This document shows, in pieces, positions 7,057-64,000 of a DNA stretch of 64,000 nt. This DNA is from Limnothrix sp. BL-A-16 (lineage in GTDB: Bacteria; Cyanobacteriota; Cyanobacteriia; CACIAM-69d). Each line of letters opens with the position of its first letter. Within the stretch, counting starts at the first letter, position 1. Position numbers and translations under genes: made by a program. The stretch spans positions 2,272,001 to 2,336,000 of the forward strand of contig CP166615.1 in assembly GCA_041937175.2 (NCBI GenBank), read 5' to 3'. The notes under the pieces were generated by a model. That model was given only the letters and a program-made list of their open reading frames with translations. It searched no databases and was not told where the DNA came from.

Positions 7057-7719
7057 TTATTCGGATGACTCTGCTGGATTTCCAAAAAGGTCTGACAGGG
7101 CGATCGATTCGTCGGGAAAGGCCAAGCAAGCGGCTCGATCGGCAGCGGTGAGAGTGAATTTGGTTTGATAGCCCTCAGGACTCGGATCGCGATAAACCTC
7201 GAGTTTTTTGTGCTCTAAATCCACTAGCCAAAACTCGCCAATCCCCGATCGCGCGTAGAGCGGCCCTTTGACCGCGCGATCATATTTGGCGGTGAAATCT
7301 GCCACCTCAATCAGCAACAGCACATTGCTGGGTTTAGGGCCATAGCTGGCATAAAAATCATCTGCCCGTTCCAACAGCACCAAGTCTGGCTGAGGCTGCG
7401 AATCTTCACCCAAATTGAGCGGATTTTTAACACTCACGATCGCTCTTTTTTGGAGCGACAATACCCAATCCCGGGCCAATCGATTGATACAAGCAGCATG
7501 TTGTGGGCTAGTTGAAATCAGATTCAGAACAATGCCGTGAATGAGTTCGGTATAGACTTCGGGCCCAAGAATGCCTGTTTCGTAAAGACGCTCGTACTCT
7601 GCGATCGTGAATCTATAGATTTGCTCGGGTGCGATGGATTGCAGCGACAAGCGGTTAATCGATTCGGTTGTTGATTGGCTAGGCGGGCAAATTTGGCTCG
7701 TAAAATTATTTTTTGCCAC
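7057..7719 (-). CDS. Uma2 family (DUF820) endonuclease
   Basis: TELIHG, PQPDLVLL, LLIEVA, KGPLYARSGIGEFWLVDL. Confidence 0.88.
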   Translation of the reverse strand: MAKNNFTSQICPPSQSTTESINRLSLQSIAPEQIYRFTIAEYERLYETGILGPEVYTELIHGIVLNLISTSPQHAACINRLARDWVLSLQKRAIVSVKNPLNLGEDSQPQPDLVLLERADDFYASYGPKPSNVLLLIEVADFTAKYDRAVKGPLYARSGIGEFWLVDLEHKKLEVYRDPSPEGYQTKFTLTAADRAACLAFPDESIALSDLFGNPAESSE

Positions 7720-10483
7720 TCCTTGTAGCTCCGCGATTCATTTTTCTGGTCGTGGGTTTTCGTTGAGCAATGGGGAGTAGAGGACTCGTCAGTTTTTCAT
7801 AGCATTCAAAGAGATATTGAATGCGACTTGACTCGCTAGTGAACGGTTGCGATCGGTAACATAAATCGACAGCTTTATCAAGTTTCTGATGAGCTTTCAT
7901 CAGATCAGCAGGCATAGTTAAAGGGTCGTATAAATTGGCAAGGCTGCTCTCAGGATATTTTGCTCTGGTATCCAACACCGCTTGAGCACAGGCTTCAATA
8001 GCTTGTTTTTGCTTACCAGTAGGAGTTTTGGGAAAGGGAAAGTTATTGTAAACAATGTATTTTGAGTAACGAAAACGCCCCTCTAATCTACCACAAACAT
8101 ATCTAGTCCATGCCATATGCATCTCAGAAGTCAAGATGCCAAATAGCAAAAGATCTGCATTGGCAATAATGAACAGCAAATCACTAGATAGCGTATGTGC
8201 ATCAAGAAAGCCAATAGGAATATACTTGCGTCTTTCGCTAGAAGCTTTTGGAATAACTAGATATTCTGATGCAGGTATATTTTCAACATGAAAACGTGTT
8301 GGCGTTAATGCTAATTTCTGAGTGGGGAGACTTGCCCTCGCCAATCTATAGCTTTTGACAGATTCAATTCTTTGCAAAACATGGGGCATTTTTTTTAATT
8401 CATTAGGAGGACAATCACCTAACCACAAACACCATCTCTCATAATTATTAATAAATTCATCAAACCCCAACCATTTCCTAAACCACTTTTCAGAGCCAGG
8501 CTCAATCTTAATAAATTCTTCTTTCTCAACCGTTGTAAACAGATAGTATCCACCATCAATTGGTTTATTTCCAATTCCAATCTGAGGAACATCACACAAA
8601 GGTAATCTTCGTCTAGGGAGAGCTATATCGTTGCCATCTGCAAGATATGGGTTAATATTTTTAGCCTTTACTTCTAATGGCTCGCCTTTAATATTTTCAT
8701 ATTCAAACAAGCGCTTTTCTGAAGCATTAAAATTAGCAAACCCAATAATTACACAGTACACAGCCGCGCTTTTTTTAGCTTCATTTGACCATTTAAAGGT
8801 TTGATGAGCGAAGTGAATTTTAATGTTGTATGTGCTAAATAAAACATTCCAAAGGATTCCAGCTTGCTCTCCTTGAGAAATTGAGTTTGTACTTACAAAA
8901 GCAACTTTAATATTTGATGCTTGGATCAATTCTGCTGCCTTAATATACCAAGCTGAAACATAATCTATTACGCCTGCGCCCTTGGCTTTCTTAAACAGTG
9001 CCAACAAATCTTCTCTCTGAACCTTAGTCATCATCTTCGATCCCACAAAAGGCGGATTTCCTAAAATGAAACTGAGCTTTTCTTTGGGTAAAATGTCTTC
9101 CCAGTTCATCCGCAATGCATTCCCATGGACAATCTTCACTGATTTTTTGAGTGGCAAACGCACAAAATATTGACCAAAAGTGTTGCTCACCTTCATATTC
9201 ATCTGGTGATCAATTAGCCACATTGCCACTTCTGCTACTCGTACCGGAAACTCATCATATTCAATGCCTGCAAATTGATCCACATCTACTTGAATAATCG
9301 AACCAATATCTGTCACCAATTGTCCTGTCTTATTTAATTCCTGTAATACCAAAATCTCTAGATCACGTAGTTCTCGATAGGTAATCACTAAAAAATTACC
9401 GCAACCACAGGCGGGATCAAGAAAGTGTAAGTTGGCAATTTTTTTGTGAAATTCTAATAGTCCATTACGACTTCCTTTAATTTTCTCAAATTCCGTGTAT
9501 AGATCATCTAACAACAATGGTTTAATAACTCTTTGAATATTTTTCTCGGAGGTATAGTGCGCCCCCAAATTGCGTCGTTTCTTTGAATCCATCACTGCTT
9601 GAAACATAGATCCAAAAATAGCAGGTGAAATTTTTCCCCAATCAAAAGCACAGGCTTCTAGCAACATTAATCGCATCTTGCTATCGAAAGCCGCCAAAAG
9701 TAATGGCTCTTCAAATAGCTTGCCATTCACATAGGGAAATTGAGTTAAATTTTCATCCAGATTTTTTAAGCGTCTTTCTTCTGGCGTATTCAAAACCTGA
9801 AAGATGGAAGCAAGGTGCATTGCCAGATCACTGCCATCTTCTTTTGTGTGCAGATCAATATATTCTCGAAAAATACCTTTATTGAAAATACCTGTATCGT
9901 CTGCAAATAAACAAAACAGCAGCCGCACAAGATAGACTTCTAAATCATGACCCATATAACCAATTTCTTTGAGGCAGTCATGAAATTTTCCCATCAATTC
10001 GGCTGCTTCGATATTAACTGGATCGCTGTCCTTATAGACTCGCTTTTCGTATCCTGCAATGAAGTCAAATAGGTGAATATTTTGAGCAAATTCATCCAGT
10101 CCGAACTCTGACTGATGACCTAAATCTAGGTCGTATAATTTAAATCTTTGAAAATCCGAGACTAGAATATATCGTGGCAATTCATGTTCTTTTAAATTTG
10201 GAAAATAATCCTTAGCCTGCTGCGTTGCTCTTTCTAAGTCCTTGCTTCTTGATTTATGCTCAACTAAAATCATTCCTTTCCATAGCAAATCGATAAAGCC
10301 TTGCTTGTTATCTGCTTTTTTAACGGGTTGCTCAAAACTAGCTACCCTACGTCGCGAAATTCCAAAGACATTAAAAAAATCATTCCAAAAAGATTGGGCT
10401 TCAGCTTTTTCTGAAGTCTCTCCTTCCCACTCTTTTTGAAAAATAATCGCCCGACTTTTGATTTCATTCCAGCTTAAGGGCAT
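7706..10483 (-). CDS. MmeI-like type IIL restriction-modification enzyme (fused PD-(D/E)xK nuclease, N6-adenine methyltransferase and target recognition domain)
   Basis: FIDLLWKGMILVEHKS nuclease motif, LGAHYTS, DPACGCGNFL (SAM binding), GNPPFVG (motif IV), VYNNFPFP; 925 aa; AT-rich. Confidence 0.88.
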   Translation of the reverse strand: MPLSWNEIKSRAIIFQKEWEGETSEKAEAQSFWNDFFNVFGISRRRVASFEQPVKKADNKQGFIDLLWKGMILVEHKSRSKDLERATQQAKDYFPNLKEHELPRYILVSDFQRFKLYDLDLGHQSEFGLDEFAQNIHLFDFIAGYEKRVYKDSDPVNIEAAELMGKFHDCLKEIGYMGHDLEVYLVRLLFCLFADDTGIFNKGIFREYIDLHTKEDGSDLAMHLASIFQVLNTPEERRLKNLDENLTQFPYVNGKLFEEPLLLAAFDSKMRLMLLEACAFDWGKISPAIFGSMFQAVMDSKKRRNLGAHYTSEKNIQRVIKPLLLDDLYTEFEKIKGSRNGLLEFHKKIANLHFLDPACGCGNFLVITYRELRDLEILVLQELNKTGQLVTDIGSIIQVDVDQFAGIEYDEFPVRVAEVAMWLIDHQMNMKVSNTFGQYFVRLPLKKSVKIVHGNALRMNWEDILPKEKLSFILGNPPFVGSKMMTKVQREDLLALFKKAKGAGVIDYVSAWYIKAAELIQASNIKVAFVSTNSISQGEQAGILWNVLFSTYNIKIHFAHQTFKWSNEAKKSAAVYCVIIGFANFNASEKRLFEYENIKGEPLEVKAKNINPYLADGNDIALPRRRLPLCDVPQIGIGNKPIDGGYYLFTTVEKEEFIKIEPGSEKWFRKWLGFDEFINNYERWCLWLGDCPPNELKKMPHVLQRIESVKSYRLARASLPTQKLALTPTRFHVENIPASEYLVIPKASSERRKYIPIGFLDAHTLSSDLLFIIANADLLLFGILTSEMHMAWTRYVCGRLEGRFRYSKYIVYNNFPFPKTPTGKQKQAIEACAQAVLDTRAKYPESSLANLYDPLTMPADLMKAHQKLDKAVDLCYRSQPFTSESSRIQYLFECYEKLTSPLLPIAQRKPTTRKMNRGATRSGKK

Positions 10484-50359: not shown

Positions 50360-53116
50360 GTGGGGCTTGTGATGGATTTTGGATCAATTCTGTCGCCCGA
50401 GAAATGGTGGCTGTTGCTGGTGACAGTGCTGTTGGGCATCAACACGGGGGTGATTTTGCCAGCTCAGTATGATTCATCGGCTCCTGCGCCTCGCAAGTGG
50501 TTGATCATTAGCACTTGGCTTTTGAACGGGATTTTGACAGGGTTGGCGGGGCTGTTGTTTTCACAGGAGAAGCCCAATTTTCAGCTTTGCCAAGGCTTGA
50601 CGATCGGGGGTGCGATCGTGGGTGTTGTGACGCTGGCGATCTTTTTTCGGGGCCCCAAGGCTGTAGTGACAGCGCACGATCGCCGATCGGAGTTGTTGGG
50701 GGTGCTGAAGGAGGAGTATGGCCAGCGGGAAACGGGGGCGGTGTTGGGCAAGTCGATCGCCCCTGTGCCCTTGGAGCCGCCGCGATCGATTCCCTTTCTT
50801 GGCAAGTTGTTCGGGTTTGGGCAGGAGCGATCACTATCGGGGCTGGATGACTTGCTCAAAACGTTTGATGAAGCCCAGCGGCAGGTGTTGATTTTGGGGG
50901 AGCCGGGGGCGGGCAAAACTACGCTGCTGGTGGCGTTGGCGAATCGGTTGGTGCAACGGGCGATCGAGGGCGATCGGGAACCGATTCCGGTGATTTTGGA
51001 GTTGTCGGCTTGGCGGGCGGGCGAGTCGCTGCCCGATTGGATTGTGGCGGAGGTGGCGGAGCGCTATCGGCCGCTGCCGGCCGCGCAGGTGGCGAACTGG
51101 CTGGCTACGGGGCAACTGCTGCCGCTGTTGGATGGGTTGGATGAGCTAAAGGATCGCCAGGGCGCGGCGATGGTGGCGATTAATGAGTGGGTGTCGCAGT
51201 CGCAAAAGTTGGCGGGGGTGGTGGTCTGTTGTCGGCGGGCGGAATATGACGCGGCGGTGGCGGCGGGCGACGCGCCTTTGGAAGAGCGGCTCAACAAGCG
51301 AATTGAGTTGCAGCCGTTGGATGAGGCAACGATTCGCACCCATTTACATGACTGCGAGCGGGATTTTTTATGGGAGAAAATTAAGCAAGATCGCGACGGG
51401 TTTCGCAAGTTGGCAGAGTCGCCGTTGTTGTTGGATTTGATGGTGGCGGCCTATGACAAACCGGGAAAATGGCAACGAGAAGCGCCGCGAAATCCTGATG
51501 ATCTAGCAGCCTATTATCTTGATTGTCGAGATCGTCTTTTAGATGATTATTTTGAAGTGCGGTTGCATAGTGTGCCGCATCCCAAATACAAACCAGCAGA
51601 TACGCGCCGTTATTTGGAATGGTTAGCGCGATTGATGCGCGATCGCAACCAAACGGAATTTTTGATTGAGTATATGCAGCCTGATTTGATTGAGGATCTA
51701 AAAGATCTGAAAGGCTATCGAGACTGCTTGGGATTTATAGCTGCAATACCTCTTGCTCTTGGCTCTTGGTTGCTTGGAGTAGTCCTCAATGAAGAATTTT
51801 ACGGACTCGTATTAGGTCTTGGGATTGGATTACAAGTATTTTGCTCGATGGAGATTCTCTATATTAGAATCTCAAAAACAATTTGGTCTGATATATCTCT
51901 GTTATTTCTTAGGGGACGAATCTTTATACTATTTATTTTTCAATCTTTCTTAAAAGGGGAGTTCATAGGAAATTATTTCTTTGCTCCCTTGCTCATCTTA
52001 ACTTTTTGTGGATATTTTTACGTATTATCTAGTGTTTTCAACATCGAAAACCAAAATCATCTTTCATATTTTCTCATATCAATTCCCTTTCTTTTTATAG
52101 TTGCAGTTGTTGCATTAGGTGCAATTCTTGAAAGTAATTCTTTATACTTAAAAAAGATTTCTTATAAAGAAACAAACGAAGGAACAATAGAGTCAAGAAA
52201 AAGTCTTGCTTTACTAACATTTTTATTTTTTCTACTGTTTTTTATAAATCAGTCAATTTCAACTATTTTTCAAAACAAGTTATCTTGGGAGGTGACTTTC
52301 TTTCATGATATTCCAATTGCATGTATTCTCTCAGGCTTAATGGGTTTTTATTACTTTGGTGGAATTCAGATATTTCAGAAAAAATTACTGTTCATATTTT
52401 TAAATAAAGCCAATCATATCCCCATTAACTATGATGATTTTCTTCAATATGCATCAGATAAGTTAAGTCTACTTAAGAAAAGTGGCGCATACTTTCGTTT
52501 CTATCATGAATTACTCAAGATTAATATGGCTAAGTTCAGTTCACCGGCTTGTCAGCTTGAAGCACCAAGAATATCTTTAAAGAGTAAGTTGATTGCTCTT
52601 CTTATTCAATTGATACTGATTTACTTGTTGATTTTCGCCTGCTTGAATATCAATAGTTATTTTGATTCAAGCAATTCATCATTTCTCAACAGTCTTGACC
52701 TAAAGAAAAGTGATATTGTTTTTCGTAATTCTATAATTAACTCAAGATTCAAAGTGCACAAGAACAGTCTAGTTCTAGTTAATTTTATGATCAAAACAGA
52801 GACTAATCACAGTCATTCCAATTTATCAATAGACCTCATTGGAAAAGTTGTTCAATTACCTGGAGATACAATCAATTTAGGTAATAAATACTTGTTTGCC
52901 ATAAACGGAAAGTCCATAAATGAGATTTATAAAGATGCCAAAACCTGGAGTTCACTATGTTTTGATGGAAAACTTAGAGTTCCTCAAGATTCTTACGTCG
53001 TTCTACTTCAGTGGGTAGACGAACCATGGCTGGTCTTAGTTAAAGAGAAAGACATCCAAACAAAAATTCTCTTTCGGATCTACCCGTTCGATCGCTTCGG
53101 GCCGATCGAGCCGTAA
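50360..53116 (+). CDS. Membrane NACHT NTPase with multi-TM region and C-terminal S26 signal-peptidase-like domain
   Basis: Walker A GEPGAGKTT, Walker B LLDGLDE, PLLL, YFRFYHELL; C-terminus VVQLPGD..INGK..VPQDSYVVL..FRIYPFDRFG. Confidence 0.85.
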   Translation: MGLVMDFGSILSPEKWWLLLVTVLLGINTGVILPAQYDSSAPAPRKWLIISTWLLNGILTGLAGLLFSQEKPNFQLCQGLTIGGAIVGVVTLAIFFRGPKAVVTAHDRRSELLGVLKEEYGQRETGAVLGKSIAPVPLEPPRSIPFLGKLFGFGQERSLSGLDDLLKTFDEAQRQVLILGEPGAGKTTLLVALANRLVQRAIEGDREPIPVILELSAWRAGESLPDWIVAEVAERYRPLPAAQVANWLATGQLLPLLDGLDELKDRQGAAMVAINEWVSQSQKLAGVVVCCRRAEYDAAVAAGDAPLEERLNKRIELQPLDEATIRTHLHDCERDFLWEKIKQDRDGFRKLAESPLLLDLMVAAYDKPGKWQREAPRNPDDLAAYYLDCRDRLLDDYFEVRLHSVPHPKYKPADTRRYLEWLARLMRDRNQTEFLIEYMQPDLIEDLKDLKGYRDCLGFIAAIPLALGSWLLGVVLNEEFYGLVLGLGIGLQVFCSMEILYIRISKTIWSDISLLFLRGRIFILFIFQSFLKGEFIGNYFFAPLLILTFCGYFYVLSSVFNIENQNHLSYFLISIPFLFIVAVVALGAILESNSLYLKKISYKETNEGTIESRKSLALLTFLFFLLFFINQSISTIFQNKLSWEVTFFHDIPIACILSGLMGFYYFGGIQIFQKKLLFIFLNKANHIPINYDDFLQYASDKLSLLKKSGAYFRFYHELLKINMAKFSSPACQLEAPRISLKSKLIALLIQLILIYLLIFACLNINSYFDSSNSSFLNSLDLKKSDIVFRNSIINSRFKVHKNSLVLVNFMIKTETNHSHSNLSIDLIGKVVQLPGDTINLGNKYLFAINGKSINEIYKDAKTWSSLCFDGKLRVPQDSYVVLLQWVDEPWLVLVKEKDIQTKILFRIYPFDRFGPIEP

Positions 53117-56350: not shown

Positions 56351-56375
56351 GATTTGATAATAGTTCGGTAGTCCA

Positions 56376-56490
56376 GTAGGTTGGGTTGAGCCTCGCGAAA
56401 CCCAACGCAAGATCTGGGCTATGCGATCAATTACTTTCAAAACATAGCGTATTGATCGTGTTGGGTTTCGCACGGCTCAACCCAACCTAC
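56376..56490. repeat. GTAG-type REP doublet (REPIN-like)
   Basis: GTAGGTTGGGTTGAGCC-TCGCGAAACCCAACGC ... GTGTTGGGTTTCGCAC-GGCTCAACCCAACCTAC; each arm is itself a hairpin. Confidence 0.8.
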
Positions 56491-56600
56491 TGCTCTCAGT
56501 TAACGGTAGCTTCTGCGATCGCTGGTGGTTGATTTCGACATCCCGATCGCCTTGGTGAGGTTGTTAGGATGGGGCGAGTGATGAACCGATCGCTCCACCT

Positions 56601-59600
56601 ATGCCGACCATTCAGATTCGCGAAGTTGCTGCCGTTGTCGATGGGTTCACTGCTGAGGTGACGATCGCCCAGGATCTCAACACGAGCCGCGCCTATCCCG
56701 TCACGTTGCGGAATCCGTTTCAGCACAACGAAGAAGCGGATCTGGAATTCTTCTTTGAAGAGTGGTATCAGTTCCCGACGCTCGATCGGGAGCGGGCCGA
56801 TCGCGCCCGCCTGGCGATCGCTCAATATGGCCAAGAGCTGTTCGAGCAACTGTTGAAGGCGAATTCCGATGCCTACGCGGACTATCGGGACTTGCGGCGA
56901 TCGCAGGCCTTTGAGCGGGGCACGGTGCTGATCGAAATCATCGGCTCGCCGGAGTTTCAGGGGTGGCATTGGGAAGCCCTGCGCGATCCCGATTTGCCGG
57001 AACCGCTGTCACTGATGACCCCGATCGTCCGGCGCGACCCCCGGCGATCGGTTGCCAATCCGGCGCGGGTTGAGCCGTCTGGCTGGCTGAATTTGTTGGT
57101 GGTGACGGCGCGGCCCGGTTGGAGCCAGGATGTGAACTACCGGACGATTTCCCGGCCGTTGGTGGAGGCGATCGCCAATGCTCAGTTGCCCGTGAAGGTG
57201 GAGCTATTGCGGCCCGGCACTTGGGAAGCGCTCGATCGCCACCTGCAAGATGTCGGGCCGGGGTTCTATCACGCGGTGCATTTCGATTTGCATGGGTCGG
57301 TGCTGACTTACAAAGAAGCTAGCAAACTGCTCGATCGCCCCGCCCAAGCCAGCGGCCAAACCTTTCGGCGCGGTTATGGTTTGGGGGATTTGCCTGAATA
57401 TGACGGCTATCGGGCATTTCTGAGCTTTGAAGGAGAAGCGGCGGGCCAGTCAATTTTGGTGGAAGCGGCGGAGGTGGCAAATCTGCTGAAGACCCGGCAA
57501 ATTCCTCTTTGCATTTTGAATGCTTGCCAGTCTGCCAAGCAGATTAGCGGTGGCGAGGGGCCGGCGGCGGAAACCAGCCTGGGGGCCAAGCTGCTGGAGG
57601 CGGGGATGCAGGCGATCGTGGCCATGCGCTATTCGGTGATGGTGCGGGCGGCGGAACTGATGATGACGCGGTTCTATCAGGCGCTGTTTACCGAGCAGCC
57701 GGTGATGGAGGCGATTCGGTTGGGGCGGCGGGAGCTGTGGCAAACCAAAACCCGCCCCGGCCGGTTCAACATGCCGATCGAGCTGGAGGATTGGCTGTTG
57801 CCGGTGGTCTACAGTGGCGCGACGGTGAATTTGAATTTGCGGCCCCTGACGGCCGACGAAGAGGCGGCCCGGTGGACGGCGGAGGCCGATCGCGATCGCT
57901 TTGAGCCGCCGATCTATGGCTTTGTGGGACGGGACACGGACATTTTGGAGCTGGAGCGGCGGTTGTTGCAGCCCGATCGCAACGCTCTGTTGTTGCAGGG
58001 GATGGGCGGCACGGGCAAAACCACGCTGCTGCGCTATTTGCGCGACTGGTGGCAGCGGACGGGGCTGATTGAGCGATCGTTCTATTTTGGCTATGACGAG
58101 CGGGCCCACAACCTGGAGCAAATCGCCGCCAGCATTTTTCAGCAGCTTGATCCCGAGGGGTGGTTGCGGTTCCAGTCGTTCCCCTTGGCGGCGCGGTTGA
58201 CCAAGCTGACCCAACTGTTGCGATCGCGCCGCTATGCCTTGATTCTGGACAATTTGGAATCGGTGACGGCGGCGGCCCTGTCGATTCCCAACAGCCTGCC
58301 GGAGTCGGAGCAGCGGGCCTTGGCCCAATGGTTGCGCGGGTTGGTGGGGGGCAAAACCCTGATTTTGTTGGGGTCGCGGGGGGCGGAATCCTGGCTGGAG
58401 CCGGTCTATGGAGCCAATCGGCTGGGGTTGCGGGGGTTGGATCGGGATGCCCGCACGGAGCTGGCCCAAAAAATTCTGGAGCGACAGGTGGGCGACTCGC
58501 GCCGCATCGCTCAGATCAAGGATGATCCGGCCTTTGGGCAGTTGATGAAGCTGTTGGATGGCTATCCATTGGCGATGGAGGTGGTGTTGGGGAATCTGAA
58601 GCGCCAAACCCCCAGCGAAATTGTGGCGGGGCTGGCGGCGGCGGATGTGAATCTGGACAATCCGCAGGCCCAGGGCGACAAAACCCAAAGCATCATTGCT
58701 TGCATTGACTATTCCCACGGGGCGCTGTCGGCAGCGGCCCAGCAGGCATTGCTCTGTTTGGCTCCCTTCAGTGGGTTTATTAATTGCGATGGCAATTGCT
58801 TGGAACAGTATGCGGCGCGGTTGGCGGAGCAGCCGGCCTTAGCGGCTTGGTTGGGGGATTCGGGGGCAGAAATTTTGGCGGCGGCGGTGCAGGAGGCGGT
58901 GGATTGGGGGCTGTTGTCGCCGATTTCGCCGGAAGTACCGATCTTACTGACCATTCAGCCGACGTTGCCCTATTTCCTGAAGCTGAAGTTAGCGGAACGG
59001 GACAAAGAAACCCAAGCGGCGATTCGCAATGCCTTTAAGCAGCACTACATCGGCTTGGCGAATTACTACAACAATCGATTGCTGAAATCAAAGGAGCCAG
59101 ATCAGCGGCAATTGGGGATCTTTTTTGTGCGGCAGGAGTATGAAAATTGCTATGCAGCGCTGCAAATTTGCCTAGAGAAATTCGAGACGGCAGATATTTT
59201 CTTTTGCCTATTCCAATATTTGTACGTGACCCAAGATTGGCCGACTGCCAAGGCTTTGGCGGAACAAGTTCGGGCGGCCCATGCCCAATATCCTCCCGAA
59301 ATTCGTCAGGGCAAAATCGGCTTGGAAATTACGATGTCGCTCGATCGCCTGGCCTCTTGCCAATTGGAACTCAAGGACTATGCAGGCGCTCGGGCGGCTT
59401 ATTTGGAAGAACTCCAACAACTCGATCAACTACAAGGCGTTGACCGTCGCCAAATCTTAGCCAGCCAAGCCAGCACCTACCACCAGTTGGGAAGGGTTGC
59501 CCAGGGCTTGCGGGAGTATGCCGAAGCCCGCCGCTGCTACCAACAGGCCCTCGAAATCAAAATCGAGTTCGGCGAGTCTCCAGAGGAGAGGCTTCGCCAA

Positions 59601-60581
59601 CGCTACGAGCAAGCTGGCACCTACCACCAGTTGGGAATCGTTGCCCAGGAATTGCGGGAGTTTGCCGAAGCCCGCCGCTGCTACCAACAGGCCCTCGAAA
59701 TCAAAATCGAGTTCGGCGATCGCTACAGCCAAGCCAGCACCTATGGTCAGTTGGGAAGTGTGGCCCAGGAATTACGGGAGTTTGCCGAAGCCCGCCGCTG
59801 CTACCAACAGGCCCTCGAAATCAAAATCGAGTTCGGCGATCGCTACAGCCAAGCCAGCACCTACCACCAGTTGGGAATCGTCGCCCAGGAATTGCGGGAG
59901 TTTGCCGAAGCCCGCCGCTGCTACCAACAGGCCCTCGAAATCAAAATCGAGTTCGGCGATCGCTACAGCCAAGCCAGCACCTACCACCAGTTGGGAATCG
60001 TCGCCCAGGAATTGCGGGAGTTTGCCGAAGCCCGCCGCTGCTACCAACAGTCCCTCGAAATCAACATCGAGTTTGGCGATCGTTACGAGCAAGCTGACAC
60101 CTACCACCAGTTGGGAATCGTTGCCCAGGAATTGCGGGAGTTTGCCGAAGCCCGCCGCTGCTACCAACAGTCCCTCGAAATCAACATCGAGTTTGGCGAT
60201 CGTTACGAGCAAGCTGACACCTACCACCAGTTGGGAAATATTGCCTATCTACTGCGGGAGTTTGCCGCAGCCCGCCGCTGCTACCAACAGGCCCTCGAAA
60301 TCAACATCGAGTTCGGCGATTCCTATAGCCAAGCCAGCACATTCAATCAGCTAGGGTTGCTGTCTCAAGCAACGGAAAATTTCCCCAAAGCTCTCGATTA
60401 TTTCCTGCAAGCGCTGCAAATTTTTGCCCAATTTGAAGACACCCACCACGCCCAAGTTGTCCTCAGAAACATCGCCAACCTTTACCAACAAACCCAAGAC
60501 CCCAACATCCTCACCGCCGCCGCCGAAATCCTCGGTTGCACCCCCGACGACCTCGCCACCGCCTTCACCCAACAGCCGTAG
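56601..60581 (+). CDS. CHAT (caspase-like) protease - STAND/NB-ARC-like NTPase - TPR protein
   Basis: WHWEAL, VHFDLHG (His) and LNACQS (Cys) dyad; GMGGTGKTT Walker A, ILDNLE Walker B, GYPLAME; C-terminal 40-aa TPRs. Confidence 0.9.
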   Translation: MPTIQIREVAAVVDGFTAEVTIAQDLNTSRAYPVTLRNPFQHNEEADLEFFFEEWYQFPTLDRERADRARLAIAQYGQELFEQLLKANSDAYADYRDLRRSQAFERGTVLIEIIGSPEFQGWHWEALRDPDLPEPLSLMTPIVRRDPRRSVANPARVEPSGWLNLLVVTARPGWSQDVNYRTISRPLVEAIANAQLPVKVELLRPGTWEALDRHLQDVGPGFYHAVHFDLHGSVLTYKEASKLLDRPAQASGQTFRRGYGLGDLPEYDGYRAFLSFEGEAAGQSILVEAAEVANLLKTRQIPLCILNACQSAKQISGGEGPAAETSLGAKLLEAGMQAIVAMRYSVMVRAAELMMTRFYQALFTEQPVMEAIRLGRRELWQTKTRPGRFNMPIELEDWLLPVVYSGATVNLNLRPLTADEEAARWTAEADRDRFEPPIYGFVGRDTDILELERRLLQPDRNALLLQGMGGTGKTTLLRYLRDWWQRTGLIERSFYFGYDERAHNLEQIAASIFQQLDPEGWLRFQSFPLAARLTKLTQLLRSRRYALILDNLESVTAAALSIPNSLPESEQRALAQWLRGLVGGKTLILLGSRGAESWLEPVYGANRLGLRGLDRDARTELAQKILERQVGDSRRIAQIKDDPAFGQLMKLLDGYPLAMEVVLGNLKRQTPSEIVAGLAAADVNLDNPQAQGDKTQSIIACIDYSHGALSAAAQQALLCLAPFSGFINCDGNCLEQYAARLAEQPALAAWLGDSGAEILAAAVQEAVDWGLLSPISPEVPILLTIQPTLPYFLKLKLAERDKETQAAIRNAFKQHYIGLANYYNNRLLKSKEPDQRQLGIFFVRQEYENCYAALQICLEKFETADIFFCLFQYLYVTQDWPTAKALAEQVRAAHAQYPPEIRQGKIGLEITMSLDRLASCQLELKDYAGARAAYLEELQQLDQLQGVDRRQILASQASTYHQLGRVAQGLREYAEARRCYQQALEIKIEFGESPEERLRQRYEQAGTYHQLGIVAQELREFAEARRCYQQALEIKIEFGDRYSQASTYGQLGSVAQELREFAEARRCYQQALEIKIEFGDRYSQASTYHQLGIVAQELREFAEARRCYQQALEIKIEFGDRYSQASTYHQLGIVAQELREFAEARRCYQQSLEINIEFGDRYEQADTYHQLGIVAQELREFAEARRCYQQSLEINIEFGDRYEQADTYHQLGNIAYLLREFAAARRCYQQALEINIEFGDSYSQASTFNQLGLLSQATENFPKALDYFLQALQIFAQFEDTHHAQVVLRNIANLYQQTQDPNILTAAAEILGCTPDDLATAFTQQP
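59463..60340 (+). repeat. Intragenic array of about 7 near-identical 120-bp TPR-coding repeats
   Basis: Units in register at 59601, 59721, 59841, 59961, 60081, 60201, with partial flanking units. Confidence 0.95.
59572..59603. mobile_element. Very small structured element inserted in frame into a HIP1 site
   Basis: Other junctions read GGCGATCG(C/T)TAC; this one reads GGCGA-GTCTCCAGAGGAGAGGCTTCGCCAA-CGCTAC (net +24 nt). Confidence 0.7.
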
Positions 60582-60705
60582 GGTGCATGGGAGAACACTT
60601 GGCCATTAACAATCCTTTCCCTACACCTCCCATGCACCGCAATCGATCGCGCAAAAACAACAATCCTCGATCGATTGAATAACCACAACCCTCGGTGCGT
60701 GGGAG
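60578..60705. repeat. GTAG-type REP-like element, right arm incomplete
   Basis: GTAG-GGTGCATGGGAG (60578-60593) / CTCCCATGCACC (60627-60638); CAATCGATCG / CGATCGATTG; GGTGCGTGGGAG (60694-60705). Confidence 0.65.
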
Positions 60706-60726
60706 AGCAAATCAACCTTATGGCAA

Positions 60727-61947
60727 TCACGGGCGATCAACCCCAAACCCTTCCGCTTTCAGCATAGCTAAAGTTGCAATTGCTGCTTGGGTTTCTGCTT
60801 CCTTGATGGTCTTCCCTATCCCTTGGCCATACACTCGGTTCTGAAGCTTGACTTCTACAGTCCAAGGCTCCGCCCCTGGAACTGGACAGTAATCTACCAT
60901 GCCATATTTACTTGCATTTTCTGGCTGTTGTAGAAATTCTTGAAGAGCATTTTTAGGATGTCGGGCCGTTGCACCTTCGTAGCCCAGTTTATCGATCACT
61001 TGATCAAGCTTTGGCCAGAAGAATGCCTGAACTGCTGCCAAACCAGAATCAAGATAGTAGGCTCCAATCAATGCCTCAAAGGCATTAGCAAGAACTGAAT
61101 TCTTTTGACTAATTTTCTGATCACGCTTAAGCCCATTTCCTAGTCTCAGACAATCACCCAGATCCAATTGACTCGCAAAAAGCTCGAGTTGCGTATTTTC
61201 CACAATTCGAGATTTAATTTGAGTCAATTCTCCTTCGGTTAGGTACGGGTGTTTATTATGAATATACTCGGCCACTACCAATCCCAAAACGGAATCGCCT
61301 AAAAACTCCAGCCGTTCATTGTCATCGCCACTGCTTGGGTGTTCATTTTTATAAGACCTATGGGTTAAAGCCTGTTTCAGGAGGCTGAGATTCTGGAACG
61401 GAATTTGAGAAATGAGGCGATCGCACTGCTCTTGAAACTGTCGGTCTGCCTGATTGTTAGGGTTTAGACCCCATTGCTGCGCTTGGTTTTGATGACTCAA
61501 GGCTAGCAAAGCTTCATTTTGCTGGGTGACTACCTCTTCCAATAGAGGCGATCCGATCGCCTGTAGTAACCGACGAATGCTATCGAGCGATCGATAAACA
61601 TCTGCGGTGGGAAATTCTGATTCATGGGCCCACTGGTTACGAATTTCCTGAAGTTCATTGACTAGAACTTTGTCGCTTTTGCTTAATCGGTCTTTAAAGA
61701 CCTTGGTGTAATGCTTATCTAGAATTGTTAGTAAATTGGCTACATCTTCACTAATGATTTTGATGGGAGAATACTTTTTTAAAATTGGCTGGGCTGTTCG
61801 TAGCTTGGGTAAGAAATGTAGGGATTTTGTAGCCCAATCATCCCCATATTCTGTCTGCATGGCTTCCTGAATGAAAGGAAACAATCCCTGGCGCAAAAGC
61901 TCTAGGCCACGGGTAATCGTTTCCTTTCCCCAGTTTTGGTTTGACAT
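60727..61947 (-). CDS. rnc: Swt1-like HEPN domain fused to ribonuclease III and dsRBD
   Basis: N-terminal RNQWAH (RxxxxH); ALTHRSY, NERLEFLGDSVL, AFEALIGA; dsRBD PKNALQE...GIGKTIKEAETQAA. Confidence 0.85.
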   Translation of the reverse strand: MSNQNWGKETITRGLELLRQGLFPFIQEAMQTEYGDDWATKSLHFLPKLRTAQPILKKYSPIKIISEDVANLLTILDKHYTKVFKDRLSKSDKVLVNELQEIRNQWAHESEFPTADVYRSLDSIRRLLQAIGSPLLEEVVTQQNEALLALSHQNQAQQWGLNPNNQADRQFQEQCDRLISQIPFQNLSLLKQALTHRSYKNEHPSSGDDNERLEFLGDSVLGLVVAEYIHNKHPYLTEGELTQIKSRIVENTQLELFASQLDLGDCLRLGNGLKRDQKISQKNSVLANAFEALIGAYYLDSGLAAVQAFFWPKLDQVIDKLGYEGATARHPKNALQEFLQQPENASKYGMVDYCPVPGAEPWTVEVKLQNRVYGQGIGKTIKEAETQAAIATLAMLKAEGFGVDRP

Positions 61948-62005
61948 GATGTGAATTCACAATGACTAATTTCATGGTAGTCAGCAATTCACATTTCGTG
62001 GGAAC

Positions 62006-63148
62006 CTAGCGGCGACGATCGCCCCCAAATCGTCCAACTCGGCCGGTGGGTTTGCCCAGGTTGGCGCGGAGTTGGCCACAGGCTGCATCCGACTCCAGGC
62101 CCCGGGTGCGGCGGACACTGACGGCGACGCGGCGATCGTCCAGGGTTTGCATGAAGTCCCGCACGCGCATCGGGTCAGGGCGCTGGTAGTCTACCTCCGC
62201 GATCGGGTTGTAGGGAATCAGGTTGACGTGAGCTTGGAACCCGCGCAGCAACTCCGCTAGCTCGGCGGCACAGTCGCGGCTGTCGTTGACCCCCGCCAAC
62301 AGGATGTATTCAAAGGTGACGCGGCGGCCGGTTTCGGCGGCATAGTCGCGGCAGTCCTCGATCAGCTCCTCGATCGGGTATTGGGCGGCGCTGGGAACGA
62401 TCGACTCACGGATTTCCTGGTTGGGCGCGTGGAGGCTGACAGCCAGGGTGGCTTGCAACCGTTCGTTGGCGAGCTGCCGAATCCGGCCGGGAATACCGAC
62501 AGTGGAAATGGTGATGTAGCGCTTGCCGATGCCGATGTCTTGGTTGAGCGATCGCGTTGCACTCAGGACGGCGGCGGGGTTATGTAGCGGTTCGCCCATG
62601 CCCATAAACACCACATTGCTGACCCGGCGATCGAAGTCCTCTTGGACAGTCAGCACCTGATCCAAAATTTCCGATCGCGATAGGTTGCGCACAAAGCCGC
62701 CTTTGCCCGTGGCGCAAAAGTCGCAGGCCATGGCACAGCCCACTTGGGAGGACACACAAACCGTCAGCCGATCGCGGGTGGGAATGCCGACGGTTTCCAC
62801 GATCTGCCCGTCGGCCATTTTCAGCAGAAATTTTACGGTTCCGTCATGGCTCTCGGAGCGGTGGTGCAGCTCGGAGCGGCCGATCGGAATGTCGGCGGCC
62901 GCTTCCCGCCAGTTTTTGGGGAAAACGGTGATATCCATCAGCGATCGGGCCCCGCGTTCGTAGATCCATTGGTGGAGCTGCTTGGCACGGTAGGCGGGCT
63001 GTCCCTGGTCTTTCACCCATTGGGTGAGTTCCGTGAGGGAGCCACCCAACAGCGGCGGCAGGGGCTGACGATCGGGACGGGACTGCAAAATCTGCGAATC
63101 GGTTTGGGCAGCGGTGTTCAGGGCGATTGGGGCGGGAGCCATGGTCAA
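62006..63148 (-). CDS. rlmN: 23S rRNA (adenine2503-C2) methyltransferase
   Basis: [40 protein letters not shown]. Confidence 0.96.
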
Positions 63149-63362
63149 GTCTCAAGACAAAGGGCCGAACAAACCCCAAGACACCATCGCCACCAGCCAA
63201 GCGGGCGATCGGGCATGGGATTTGGGAATTAGGCGGATCAACGGCGGGCGATCGTGAAGCGATTCAGTAGTCGATTAGGGGTCGATCGAAGCCTGTATTA
63301 GCTTAGATCGTAGCGACTCTGATCGATGATTGCCCCGTTGTTTGTTTCTTGCCCGTCTCTCC

Positions 63363-64000
63363 ATGACCCTCGAAGCCGAAAACGCCCGCCTCCAGCAGCG
63401 CGTGCATGAGCTGGAACAGCAACTGGCCCAATGGCGCGATCGCCCACCCGCCGGGCCGCCACCCAAGCCCTATGGCATCAACTTGGATCGGAAACGGGAA
63501 CCCACGGAAGTGGATCCCTTTAACTCCGAAGGGCTGTTTCGGGCCTATGTGGAAACCGCCAATGACATGGTGTATGCGGTGGATTTGCTGGGCCGGCTCG
63601 TGTTTATTAATCCCTACGGAGAGCGACTGTTGGGGATTGAACCGGGTGAATGGCGCGGCCGCCCCTACATGGACTTTGTGGCTCCGGCCTTTCAGGAACC
63701 CACGGGCCAGGCCTTTGCCAACCTGTTGCACACGGGCGAGCTAATGGATTTTGAGTTCGCGCTGCTCGATCGCGCCGGTCGAGAAATTCACATGCAGGTG
63801 AACGGGCGCTTGCTCTATGCGGATGAGGAGCTGATTGGTGGTTTGGGTATTGCGCGGGATATCACCGATCGCAAGCAGGCAGAACAGCAGGTACAGATGT
63901 TTGTGCGGGCCCTGGAGTCAACCCACGACAGCACCGCGATCGCGGACTTGCAGGGGGGCTTCATTTATGCAAACCCGGCGACCGATCGGGTTTTTGGTTG
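63363..64000 (+). CDS. PAS/PAC domain signalling protein, truncated by the window end (not in ORF track)
   Basis: ATG 63363 MTLEAENARLQQRV..FRAYVETANDMVYAVDLLGRLVFINP..IARDITDRKQAE..ADLQGGFIYANPA; open to the end. Confidence 0.88.
   Translation, partial: MTLEAENARLQQRVHELEQQLAQWRDRPPAGPPPKPYGINLDRKREPTEVDPFNSEGLFRAYVETANDMVYAVDLLGRLVFINPYGERLLGIEPGEWRGRPYMDFVAPAFQEPTGQAFANLLHTGELMDFEFALLDRAGREIHMQVNGRLLYADEELIGGLGIARDITDRKQAEQQVQMFVRALESTHDSTAIADLQGGFIYANPATDRVFG

Follow-up and report, generated by a model that had tools for sequence, protein, structure and literature searches.

Does a cyanobacterial protein that joins a HEPN domain to ribonuclease (RNase) III serve the housekeeping of cellular RNA, defence, or both? 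The question is raised by one gene in a 64,000-nucleotide stretch of the Limnothrix sp. BL-A-16 genome (contig CP166615.1, positions 2,272,001 to 2,336,000 of the forward strand; hereafter 'the window', position 1 being its first letter). This gene, at 60727..61947 on the minus strand, is an intact open reading frame (ORF) with an ATG start, which encodes 406 residues: a HEPN_Swt1 domain, a glutamine-rich linker, an RNase III domain and a double-stranded-RNA-binding domain (dsRBD). We read the product as an intact and selectively maintained two-headed endoribonuclease whose role in the window's genus leans, with a probability that we put at roughly 0.55, to conflict with phages or mobile elements over core RNA maturation. 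We favour this direction because the gene is accessory, is foreign in its composition, occupies an exchangeable slot and exists as mosaic alleles.

The domain combination, and the functional guess attached to it in a sequence-only reading of this DNA, were both in print already: HEPN + RNase III + dsRBD 'two-headed RNases' were described in cyanobacteria in 2013, with a Lyngbya example, and multiple cleavages of double-stranded RNA (dsRNA) targets by the two domains were proposed at the same time (Anantharaman et al. 2013, Biol Direct 8:15). A full-text literature search, from which subscription-only papers were out of reach, found no further paper on the fusion; excerpts of a 2022 review of RNA degradation (PMC10989914), which give cyanobacteria one to three RNase III genes with divided roles, leave HEPN unmentioned. 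In the literature searched, the architecture is known from computation only; the gene described here is an unusually divergent member.

Domains and catalytic motifs of the fusion protein

The features of the gene, all on the minus strand, are as follows.

60727..61947, minus: whole coding sequence, 406 residues, HEPN_Swt1 – linker – RNase III – dsRBD (ORF list, Pfam, NCBIfam)
61552..61911, minus: HEPN_Swt1 domain, residues 13-132, all-helical (Pfam and predicted model)
61624..61641, minus: Rx4H motif RNQWAH, R103 to H108, residues 103-108 (read from the sequence)
61387..61551, minus: glutamine-rich helical linker, residues 133-187 (sequence and predicted model)
61018..61386, minus: RNase III catalytic domain, residues 188-310 (Pfam, NCBIfam, alignment to 1o0w)
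61294..61317, minus: signature ERLEFLGD, residues 211-218, in which E211, E214 and D218 correspond to E38, E41 and D45 of Escherichia coli (sequence, alignment)
61075..61086, minus: N288-A-F-E291, corresponding to D114...E117 of E. coli, with Asp replaced by Asn (alignment, 1o0w)
60760..60957, minus: dsRBD, residues 331-396, degenerate, with GKTIKEAETQAA in place of KKEAEKxAA and the loop His absent (dsrm, alignment)
60793..60921, minus: mosaic dsRBD core, residues 343-385, of which the genus holds two allele types (allele comparison)

The N-terminal head matches Pfam HEPN_Swt1 (PF18731) over residues 13-132, along all 115 positions of the profile (E 1e-30; 106.8 bits, cut-off 27.5), and HEPN_Swt1 clusters account for 26 of 30 atlas feature matches. 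R103, N104, W106, A107 and H108 of the Rx4H motif, and with them E98, R119 and D122, are invariant in an alignment of 20 fusion proteins; R103, N104 and H108 are also nearly invariant (at least 90%) across 150 representatives of the Swt1-like HEPN type. A predicted model of the HEPN part by itself is all-helical (predicted local distance difference test score, pLDDT, 85.4; predicted template-modelling score, pTM, 0.80) and places the motif at the end of the helix formed by residues 90-107. Compared with known structures by VIA-align, this model is closest to the C-terminal domain of yeast Swt1 (4pqz; Z 7.8, root-mean-square deviation 3.2, 114 residues) and then to AbiF (Z 7.7, 134 residues). 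Proteins that are HEPN by title (Swt1, 2hsb, Csm6, sacsin HEPN and toxin 8xdj), together with two more that we class as HEPN proteins, AbiF and 9fcv (titled 'Cas nuclease'), occupy at least 7 of the 13 best rows. The Z values in these rows (5.9-7.8) lie in a range that, by the tool's own warning, is common for helical bundles, and the fold match therefore counts as supportive only. Foldseek also ranked 4pqz best, weakly (E 0.37), and a sequence-profile search of the PDB matched only the RNase III/dsRBD half. The linker, with about 10 Q per about 36 residues as judged by eye, is predicted as two helices (136-158 and 166-181), interrupted at 160-164 by a stretch of low confidence, in a full-length monomer model (pTM 0.46) in which the relative placement of the domains is unreliable.

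In the second head, the RNase III assignment is given by Pfam (PF14622, residues 188-310, E 2.6e-33) and by the NCBIfam equivalog for bacterial class-1 RNase III, TIGR02191 (199.6 bits against a cut-off of 166.25). E211, E214, D218, E238 and E291 are invariant in all 20 fusions, and the acids that are essential in E. coli (E41, D45 and E117) are all kept, as E214, D218 and E291. The fourth acid of the metal site, D114 in E. coli, is missing: Asn288 stands opposite Asp in the alignment to Thermotoga RNase III (1o0w). The sequence-only reading had seen correctly that N-A-F-E replaces D-x-x-E; this is no peculiarity of the gene described here, for all fusions have S, N or C at the site, as does an unfused paralog of the same genome (type A, L002, which reads SSAFEA), and D is kept only in a second paralog (type B, L003). 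The first RNase III domain of human Drosha likewise has Asn at the aligned position. Excerpts of a deep mutational scan of E. coli RNase III (PMC10037077) describe active-site acids as very intolerant with the exception of D114: a D114G variant has a fitness of 0.99 and cleaves 48%, versus 69% for wild type, and E41, D45 and E117 accept no mutation. Because D114 is tolerant in E. coli, the equivalents of E41, D45 and E117 are invariant and the Asn is a clade-wide trait, we predict an active RNase III site. We also considered N-A-F-E as the mark of a dead RNase III, and rejected it as a clade-wide trait at a mutation-tolerant site.

The C-terminal dsRBD is recognized by Pfam dsrm (residues 331-396, E 1.6e-9), at 38.7 bits against a cut-off of 23; the corresponding scores in 14 other fusions range from 51.6 to 83.9 bits. 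The predicted model retains the alpha-beta-beta-beta-alpha order at residues 331-398. Overall, then, the sequence-only reading described the domains accurately: the N-terminal HEPN with RNQWAH, the Q-rich linker, the RNase III with ERLEFLGD and the dsRBD are all borne out by Pfam, NCBIfam and the sequence itself.

Selection on each part was estimated by the Nei-Gojobori method between the window's genome (G000) and a second genome of the same genus (G401). The ratio of nonsynonymous to synonymous substitution rates (dN/dS) is lowest for RNase III (0.069), followed in rising order by the linker (0.113), the HEPN domain (0.144) and the dsRBD part (0.215); rlmN, as a comparison gene, has 0.110. 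The underlying dS is about 0.9, near saturation, so these values are approximate. By this measure every domain is under purifying selection and none looks decayed. Conservation of the RxxxxH motif, on which the sequence-only reading depended, is borne out by both the invariance among the 20 fusions and the low ratio for the HEPN domain.

A strain-variable slot after rlmN

The surroundings of the gene are laid out here.

62006..63148, minus: rlmN, conserved flank (99% amino-acid identity in the sister genome G402) (context)
about 60604..62015, no strand: segment without counterpart in G402, which holds only the fusion gene (blastn borders)
56601..60581, plus: CHAT-NACHT/STAND-TPR protein of 1326 residues, convergent neighbour (context)

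The fusion gene lies downstream of rlmN, on the same strand and separated from it by 58 bp, and is compositionally distinct: its GC content is 0.445 and that at third codon positions (GC3) 0.405, versus genome means of 0.567 and 0.634 over 2446 long ORFs, of which 91 are as low or lower in GC and 74 in GC3. In a sliding window, GC is 0.41-0.46 across the gene and about 0.60 in the flanks, and the genome's RNase III paralogs have typical GC and GC3, unlike the fusion gene. The position and low GC noted in the sequence-only reading are accordingly as it described them; the strand, which it left unstated, is minus.

Comparison with related genomes reveals what happens at this position. In G401 (RlmN protein identity 91%), the gene after rlmN is again the fusion. 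In G402, whose rlmN is 99% identical, DNA homology runs from 64000 down to 62016 and stops at the rlmN stop codon (blastn); what follows is a low-GC (0.42) cargo (locus L111, G402:C53, 3-1537) that begins with a 394-residue AAA_15/AAA_21 ATPase, matched by the PADLOC families PDC-M38A (1.8e-72) and AbiLi (1.4e-46). The stop of this ATPase gene overlaps the start of a second gene that runs off the contig end after at least 117 residues, begins MERRCIMIIVEGPNDQ and is matched by nothing in PADLOC (E up to 1e-5). At the other flank, the CHAT homologue of G402 matches the window up to 60603 and is followed by unrelated genes on a different contig. Genome searches found HEPN_Swt1 absent from G402 and from four further genomes of the same family (G403, G404, G405 and G220); in these four, genes of normal GC follow rlmN, among them a DegT aminotransferase in G404 (Pfam). 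The fusion gene is accessory and compositionally foreign, and its slot varies between strains, being taken by an AbiL-like pair in sister genome G402.

The gene also varies internally. Segment-wise comparison of six alleles from the genus divides the dsRBD core into two types that are 37-52% identical to each other, set between neighbouring segments that are 81-100% identical. The window allele, for instance, is 93-98% identical to P0001 over residues 1-39 and 136-342 and 43% identical in the dsRBD core. The exchange can involve the other head: P0005 and P0003 share 100% identity from residue 188 to 406 and only 33% from 40 to 100, so that the HEPN core of P0005 has been swapped; in a HEPN tree this core, despite its divergence, falls with those of the genus. 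An independent case is a contig from run X15, which has the window background with 60806-60913 exchanged for 115 other letters.

A scan for promoters and terminators called no site between rlmN and the fusion gene and none downstream; this absence is compatible with co-transcription of the two genes without proving it. The stretch that separates the fusion from the convergent CHAT gene contains a perfect inverted repeat of 12 bp (60582-60593 and 60627-60638), its arms 33 nt apart, which may be a shared terminator hairpin, though it was not called by the terminator scan. We found no convincing direct repeats or integration scars flanking the fusion gene.

Several other features of the window were noted in passing. 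The CHAT-NACHT/STAND-TPR protein contains near-identical TPR units of 42 residues; its homologue in G402 matches 57011-58987 and 60480-60603, and the intervening stretch is a low-GC (0.36-0.37) replacement. Upstream of the CHAT gene, at about 56361-56492, is a palindromic element of about 40 bp, copies of which are spread over the genus: with a query of 1.6 kb there were 84 matches in G402 and 90 in G401, nearly all of them to this palindromic stretch and on both strands. A 918-residue NACHT protein (50360-53116, plus; GC 0.441), which has no PADLOC match, is a second STAND NTPase less than 11 kb from the fusion. Far from it, a 926-residue ORF (7706-10483, minus) is also compositionally foreign (GC 0.378, GC3 0.321).

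Descent and distribution of the fusion

The window's genome has four loci of the RNase III family: the fusion, the type A paralog of 277 residues (L002), the type B paralog of 268 residues (L003), and a 178-residue frame of Mini-III size. The possibility that the fusion is the only rnc of its genome is rejected by the two ordinary full-length rnc genes and the Mini-III-size gene, and the separate canonical rnc that the sequence-only reading expected does exist. We placed these genes by maximum likelihood in a tree based on RNase III + dsRBD (49 rows), which left out L053, L057, L058, L077, L082 and L083 for want of the signature motif and L075 for want of an anchor. Type B forms a clean clade (100/100), with type A and the fusions together on the opposite side (100/100). 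Five fusions (G180, G242, G278, G020 and P0006) are nested among unfused type-A genes in a clade with 96/96 support; the remaining 13, with the window's genus among them, form a weakly supported group (84/50). The RNase III part of the fusion is, on this phylogeny, a descendant of cyanobacterial type-A rnc. The genus's clade, the most divergent one encountered, has a stem of 1.56 changes per site in this tree and 0.88 in the HEPN tree. That second tree (HEPN only, 37 rows, quick method) sets 21 fusion HEPNs apart from 16 HEPNs of the DUF499 type with SH-aLRT support of 99; because all fusion HEPNs form one group, the data fit a single origin of the HEPN-RNase III fusion.

A census of rnc types gave one type A and one type B in three genomes without the fusion (G220, G008 and G023), and fusion, unfused type A and type B in ten other fusion genomes as in the window's; the four fusion genomes that differ are taken up below. 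In three genomes of one genus (G320, locus L089 at C8 5951-7898; G005:C60; G148:C102), an unfused type-A rnc follows the fusion by about 50 bp on the same strand; the two fall in different clades of the tree, and therefore no recent tandem duplication is involved. We also observed RNase III-domain ORFs that lack the usual signature, namely L053, L057 (345 residues), L083 (595 residues), L082 (411 residues), L077 and L058, in G320, G005, G148, G050 and G312.

HEPN_Swt1 matches were found in 46 of 401 genomes sampled across the phylum, and are of two size classes: frames of about 1100-1180 residues, whose database relatives of that size carry DUF499, and 21 frames of 333-473 residues in 20 genomes. 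HEPN_Swt1, RNase III and dsrm occur together in 14 of 14 Pfam-tested short frames, six of the 21 being outside this check, and the fusion is verified in 15 of the 401 genomes, the window's included. A query built from the HEPN alignment recovered PF18731 with RNase III in 116 of its best 120 clusters at 90% identity and PF18731 with DUF499 in the other four; an alignment was needed to reach this wider set, as a single-sequence word search with the HEPN region reached only the genus's own clusters. The source names of the 120 are all cyanobacterial (Nostoc, Anabaena, Dolichospermum, Calothrix, Microcoleus, Limnoraphis, Phormidium and others). An exhaustive profile search returned 2986 cluster representatives of the Swt1-like HEPN type; among the best 150 of these, 10 have RNase III and 12 have DUF499, and most are without a second recognized domain.

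What the two heads may do

How could such a protein work? As every RNase III does, the fusion would form a homodimer, and the two HEPN domains thereby held together could make up a composite HEPN site. RNA that is structured or double-stranded would be cut, or at least docked on, by the RNase III/dsRBD half, and single-stranded RNA next to it by the paired HEPN heads, with multiple cuts per target as the outcome. We can only infer that RNase III dimerization or dsRNA binding licenses the HEPN nuclease. For the window's genus we propose, tentatively, a single-gene, exchangeable anti-phage or anti-plasmid effector: recognition of an invader's structured RNA or dsRNA would fix the HEPN dimer in its active state, RNA would be degraded in a manner resembling abortive infection, and the swapped HEPN and dsRBD cores would be traces of an arms race with inhibitors or targets. 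Two further points were counted for a conflict role. One is AbiF, an abortive-infection protein, among the structural neighbours of the HEPN model. The other emerged from a scan of the 44 ORFs that flank 12 other fusion loci, taken two to a side: G166 has a complete candidate defence pair, HEC-01A and HEC-01B (5.9e-187 and 4.1e-112), directly upstream and on the same strand as a long-branch fusion (locus L095, G166:C28, 5706-9121).

A substantial body of observations weighs against this interpretation. G166 is the only one of the 12 loci with a defence-type neighbour; the other 11 lie among housekeeping or ordinary genes (pheT, valS, ispG, argG, coaE, hemD, trpE and psaD among them), some with conserved synteny: a Mur ligase and a glutaredoxin-like gene adjoin the fusion in G041, G160 and G050, a histidine kinase gene in G180 and G242, and an ABC-transporter permease gene in G242 and G020. 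Uma2, XisH/XisI and TnpB genes are scattered near other fusions. PADLOC-DB 2.0 contains no model that matches the fusion protein (E up to 0.1, 0 families); a search of the phage collection was likewise negative, and none of 119 matching plasmid records covers 80% of the protein, with no full-length match. The fusion is the sole type-A rnc, beside type B only, in four of the 15 fusion genomes (G180, G242, G020 and G278), and the enzyme must for this reason be compatible with normal RNA metabolism, and is perhaps needed for it. The two flanks of the slot in G402 lie on different contigs, which leaves strict allelism of the two cargoes unproven, and part of the mosaic alleles come from metagenome contigs and are possible chimeras. 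RNA runs X22 and X23 contributed no reads, and metatranscriptome X1 gave a single 295-nt contig and small pieces of rlmN from other organisms, and with these no evidence of transcription. Lastly, the dsRBD in the clade of the window's genus has lost its canonical lysine motif, which we take to be of the KKxAK type. The lysines of KKxAK contact RNA. Because the motif is missing throughout the clade, dsRNA binding may be weak, which weakens the picture of a simple dsRNA sensor.

The fusion family is not a generic defence gene, because it provides the sole type-A rnc of those four genomes and keeps housekeeping neighbours elsewhere. What the sequence-only reading foresaw is only partly upheld: the distribution is patchy as it expected, and family-wide association with defence islands is contradicted by the mostly housekeeping neighbours and the lack of a PADLOC hit; a defence or specialized role distinct from that of housekeeping rnc is favoured in the genus, by the variable low-GC slot and the AbiL-like pair in G402, and disfavoured across the family by the four genomes with no other type A.

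The strong rival is a specialized role in RNA processing or turnover of a housekeeping type: a variant Rnc in which the HEPN head adds a second cut, or a grip, on cellular RNAs such as antisense duplexes, rRNA and tRNA precursors or plasmid copy-control RNAs, with location and composition incidental. Besides the neighbours, synteny and sole type-A status just described, it can draw on the nesting of the RNase III part within type-A rnc, with five fusions among unfused orthologues, on the strong purifying selection, and on the divided roles of the one to three cyanobacterial rnc genes in the review excerpts (PMC10989914). It must contend with a genome already supplied with type A, type B and a gene of Mini-III size, with the absence of the gene from sister G402 and from G220 and G403-G405 of the same family, with the low GC and long branch, with alleles that are mosaic at the level of domains, and with the AbiL-like pair in the slot of G402. 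We regard this explanation as possible, at well under even odds.

It seems improbable that the HEPN domain is not a nuclease at all and serves RNase III as an RNA-binding, dimer-stabilizing or regulatory module, as proposed for eukaryotic Swt1. The 2013 survey predicts that the HEPN of eukaryotic Swt1 is inactive and acts in RNA sensing, and counts its Swt1-like relatives in bacteria among the active ones (Anantharaman et al. 2013, Biol Direct 8:15). Four genomes with the fusion as their only type-A rnc are easier to understand if its HEPN is no free-running RNase; the conservation of R103, N104 and H108, both in the fusions and in the wider set of 150 representatives, speaks for a working site.

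A selfish, toxin-like addiction gene, with a HEPN toxin checked by an unseen protein or RNA antitoxin, would accord with the frequency of HEPN domains as toxins (Anantharaman et al. 2013, Biol Direct 8:15), with the non-coding RNA bound to AbiF, a close structural match, in entry 8vz6, and with a low-GC, strain-variable gene, and is nonetheless very unlikely: the gaps of 58 bp upstream and 145 bp downstream contain no ORF and leave no room for one encoding a partner, no small nucleotidyltransferase (as in a HEPN-MNT pair) adjoins the gene, 60300-63400 has no Rfam match, no repeats suggest an RNA antitoxin array, and in many genomes the family is inherited stably, with housekeeping genes around it.

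With the conflict role in the genus still our preferred interpretation, three aspects give the family wider interest. It is large in filamentous cyanobacteria, yet its members are labelled only 'ribonuclease III' in databases. A metal-dependent dsRNA cutter and a HEPN RNase in what would be one obligate dimer are a natural test case for how HEPN activity is restrained. And the two settings in which the fusion occurs, as sole type-A rnc in some Nostocales-like genomes and as exchangeable, low-GC, mosaic cargo in the window's genus, allow one to ask whether its work is housekeeping, defence or both.

Among known systems, the AbiF/Abi2 abortive-infection HEPNs and the HEPN + DUF499 proteins (linked to restriction-modification operons) belong to a related Abi2/Swt1 HEPN clade, and HEPN + DUF499 is the other common cyanobacterial architecture of the Swt1-like HEPN type; these proteins are without RNase III, and the fusion HEPNs group apart from those of the DUF499 type. 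Eukaryotic Swt1 has a HEPN of the same Pfam family, likewise paired with a second endoribonuclease domain; its partner is PIN, whereas that of the fusion is RNase III, and its HEPN lacks the catalytic motif (2013 survey) that is intact in the fusion. The cyanobacterial type A and type B paralogs (L002 and L003) are homologous to the RNase III + dsRBD half, and type A shares with the fusion the NERLEFLGD signature and a residue other than Asp at the D114 site; neither paralog has the additional head of 187 residues that HEPN and linker make up. The cyanobacterial two-headed RNase of 2013 has the domain order, the HEPN family and, by sequence, the protein family in common with the window gene; the clade of the window's genus is set apart from it by greater divergence, a degenerate dsRBD, low GC, a variable slot and mosaic alleles.

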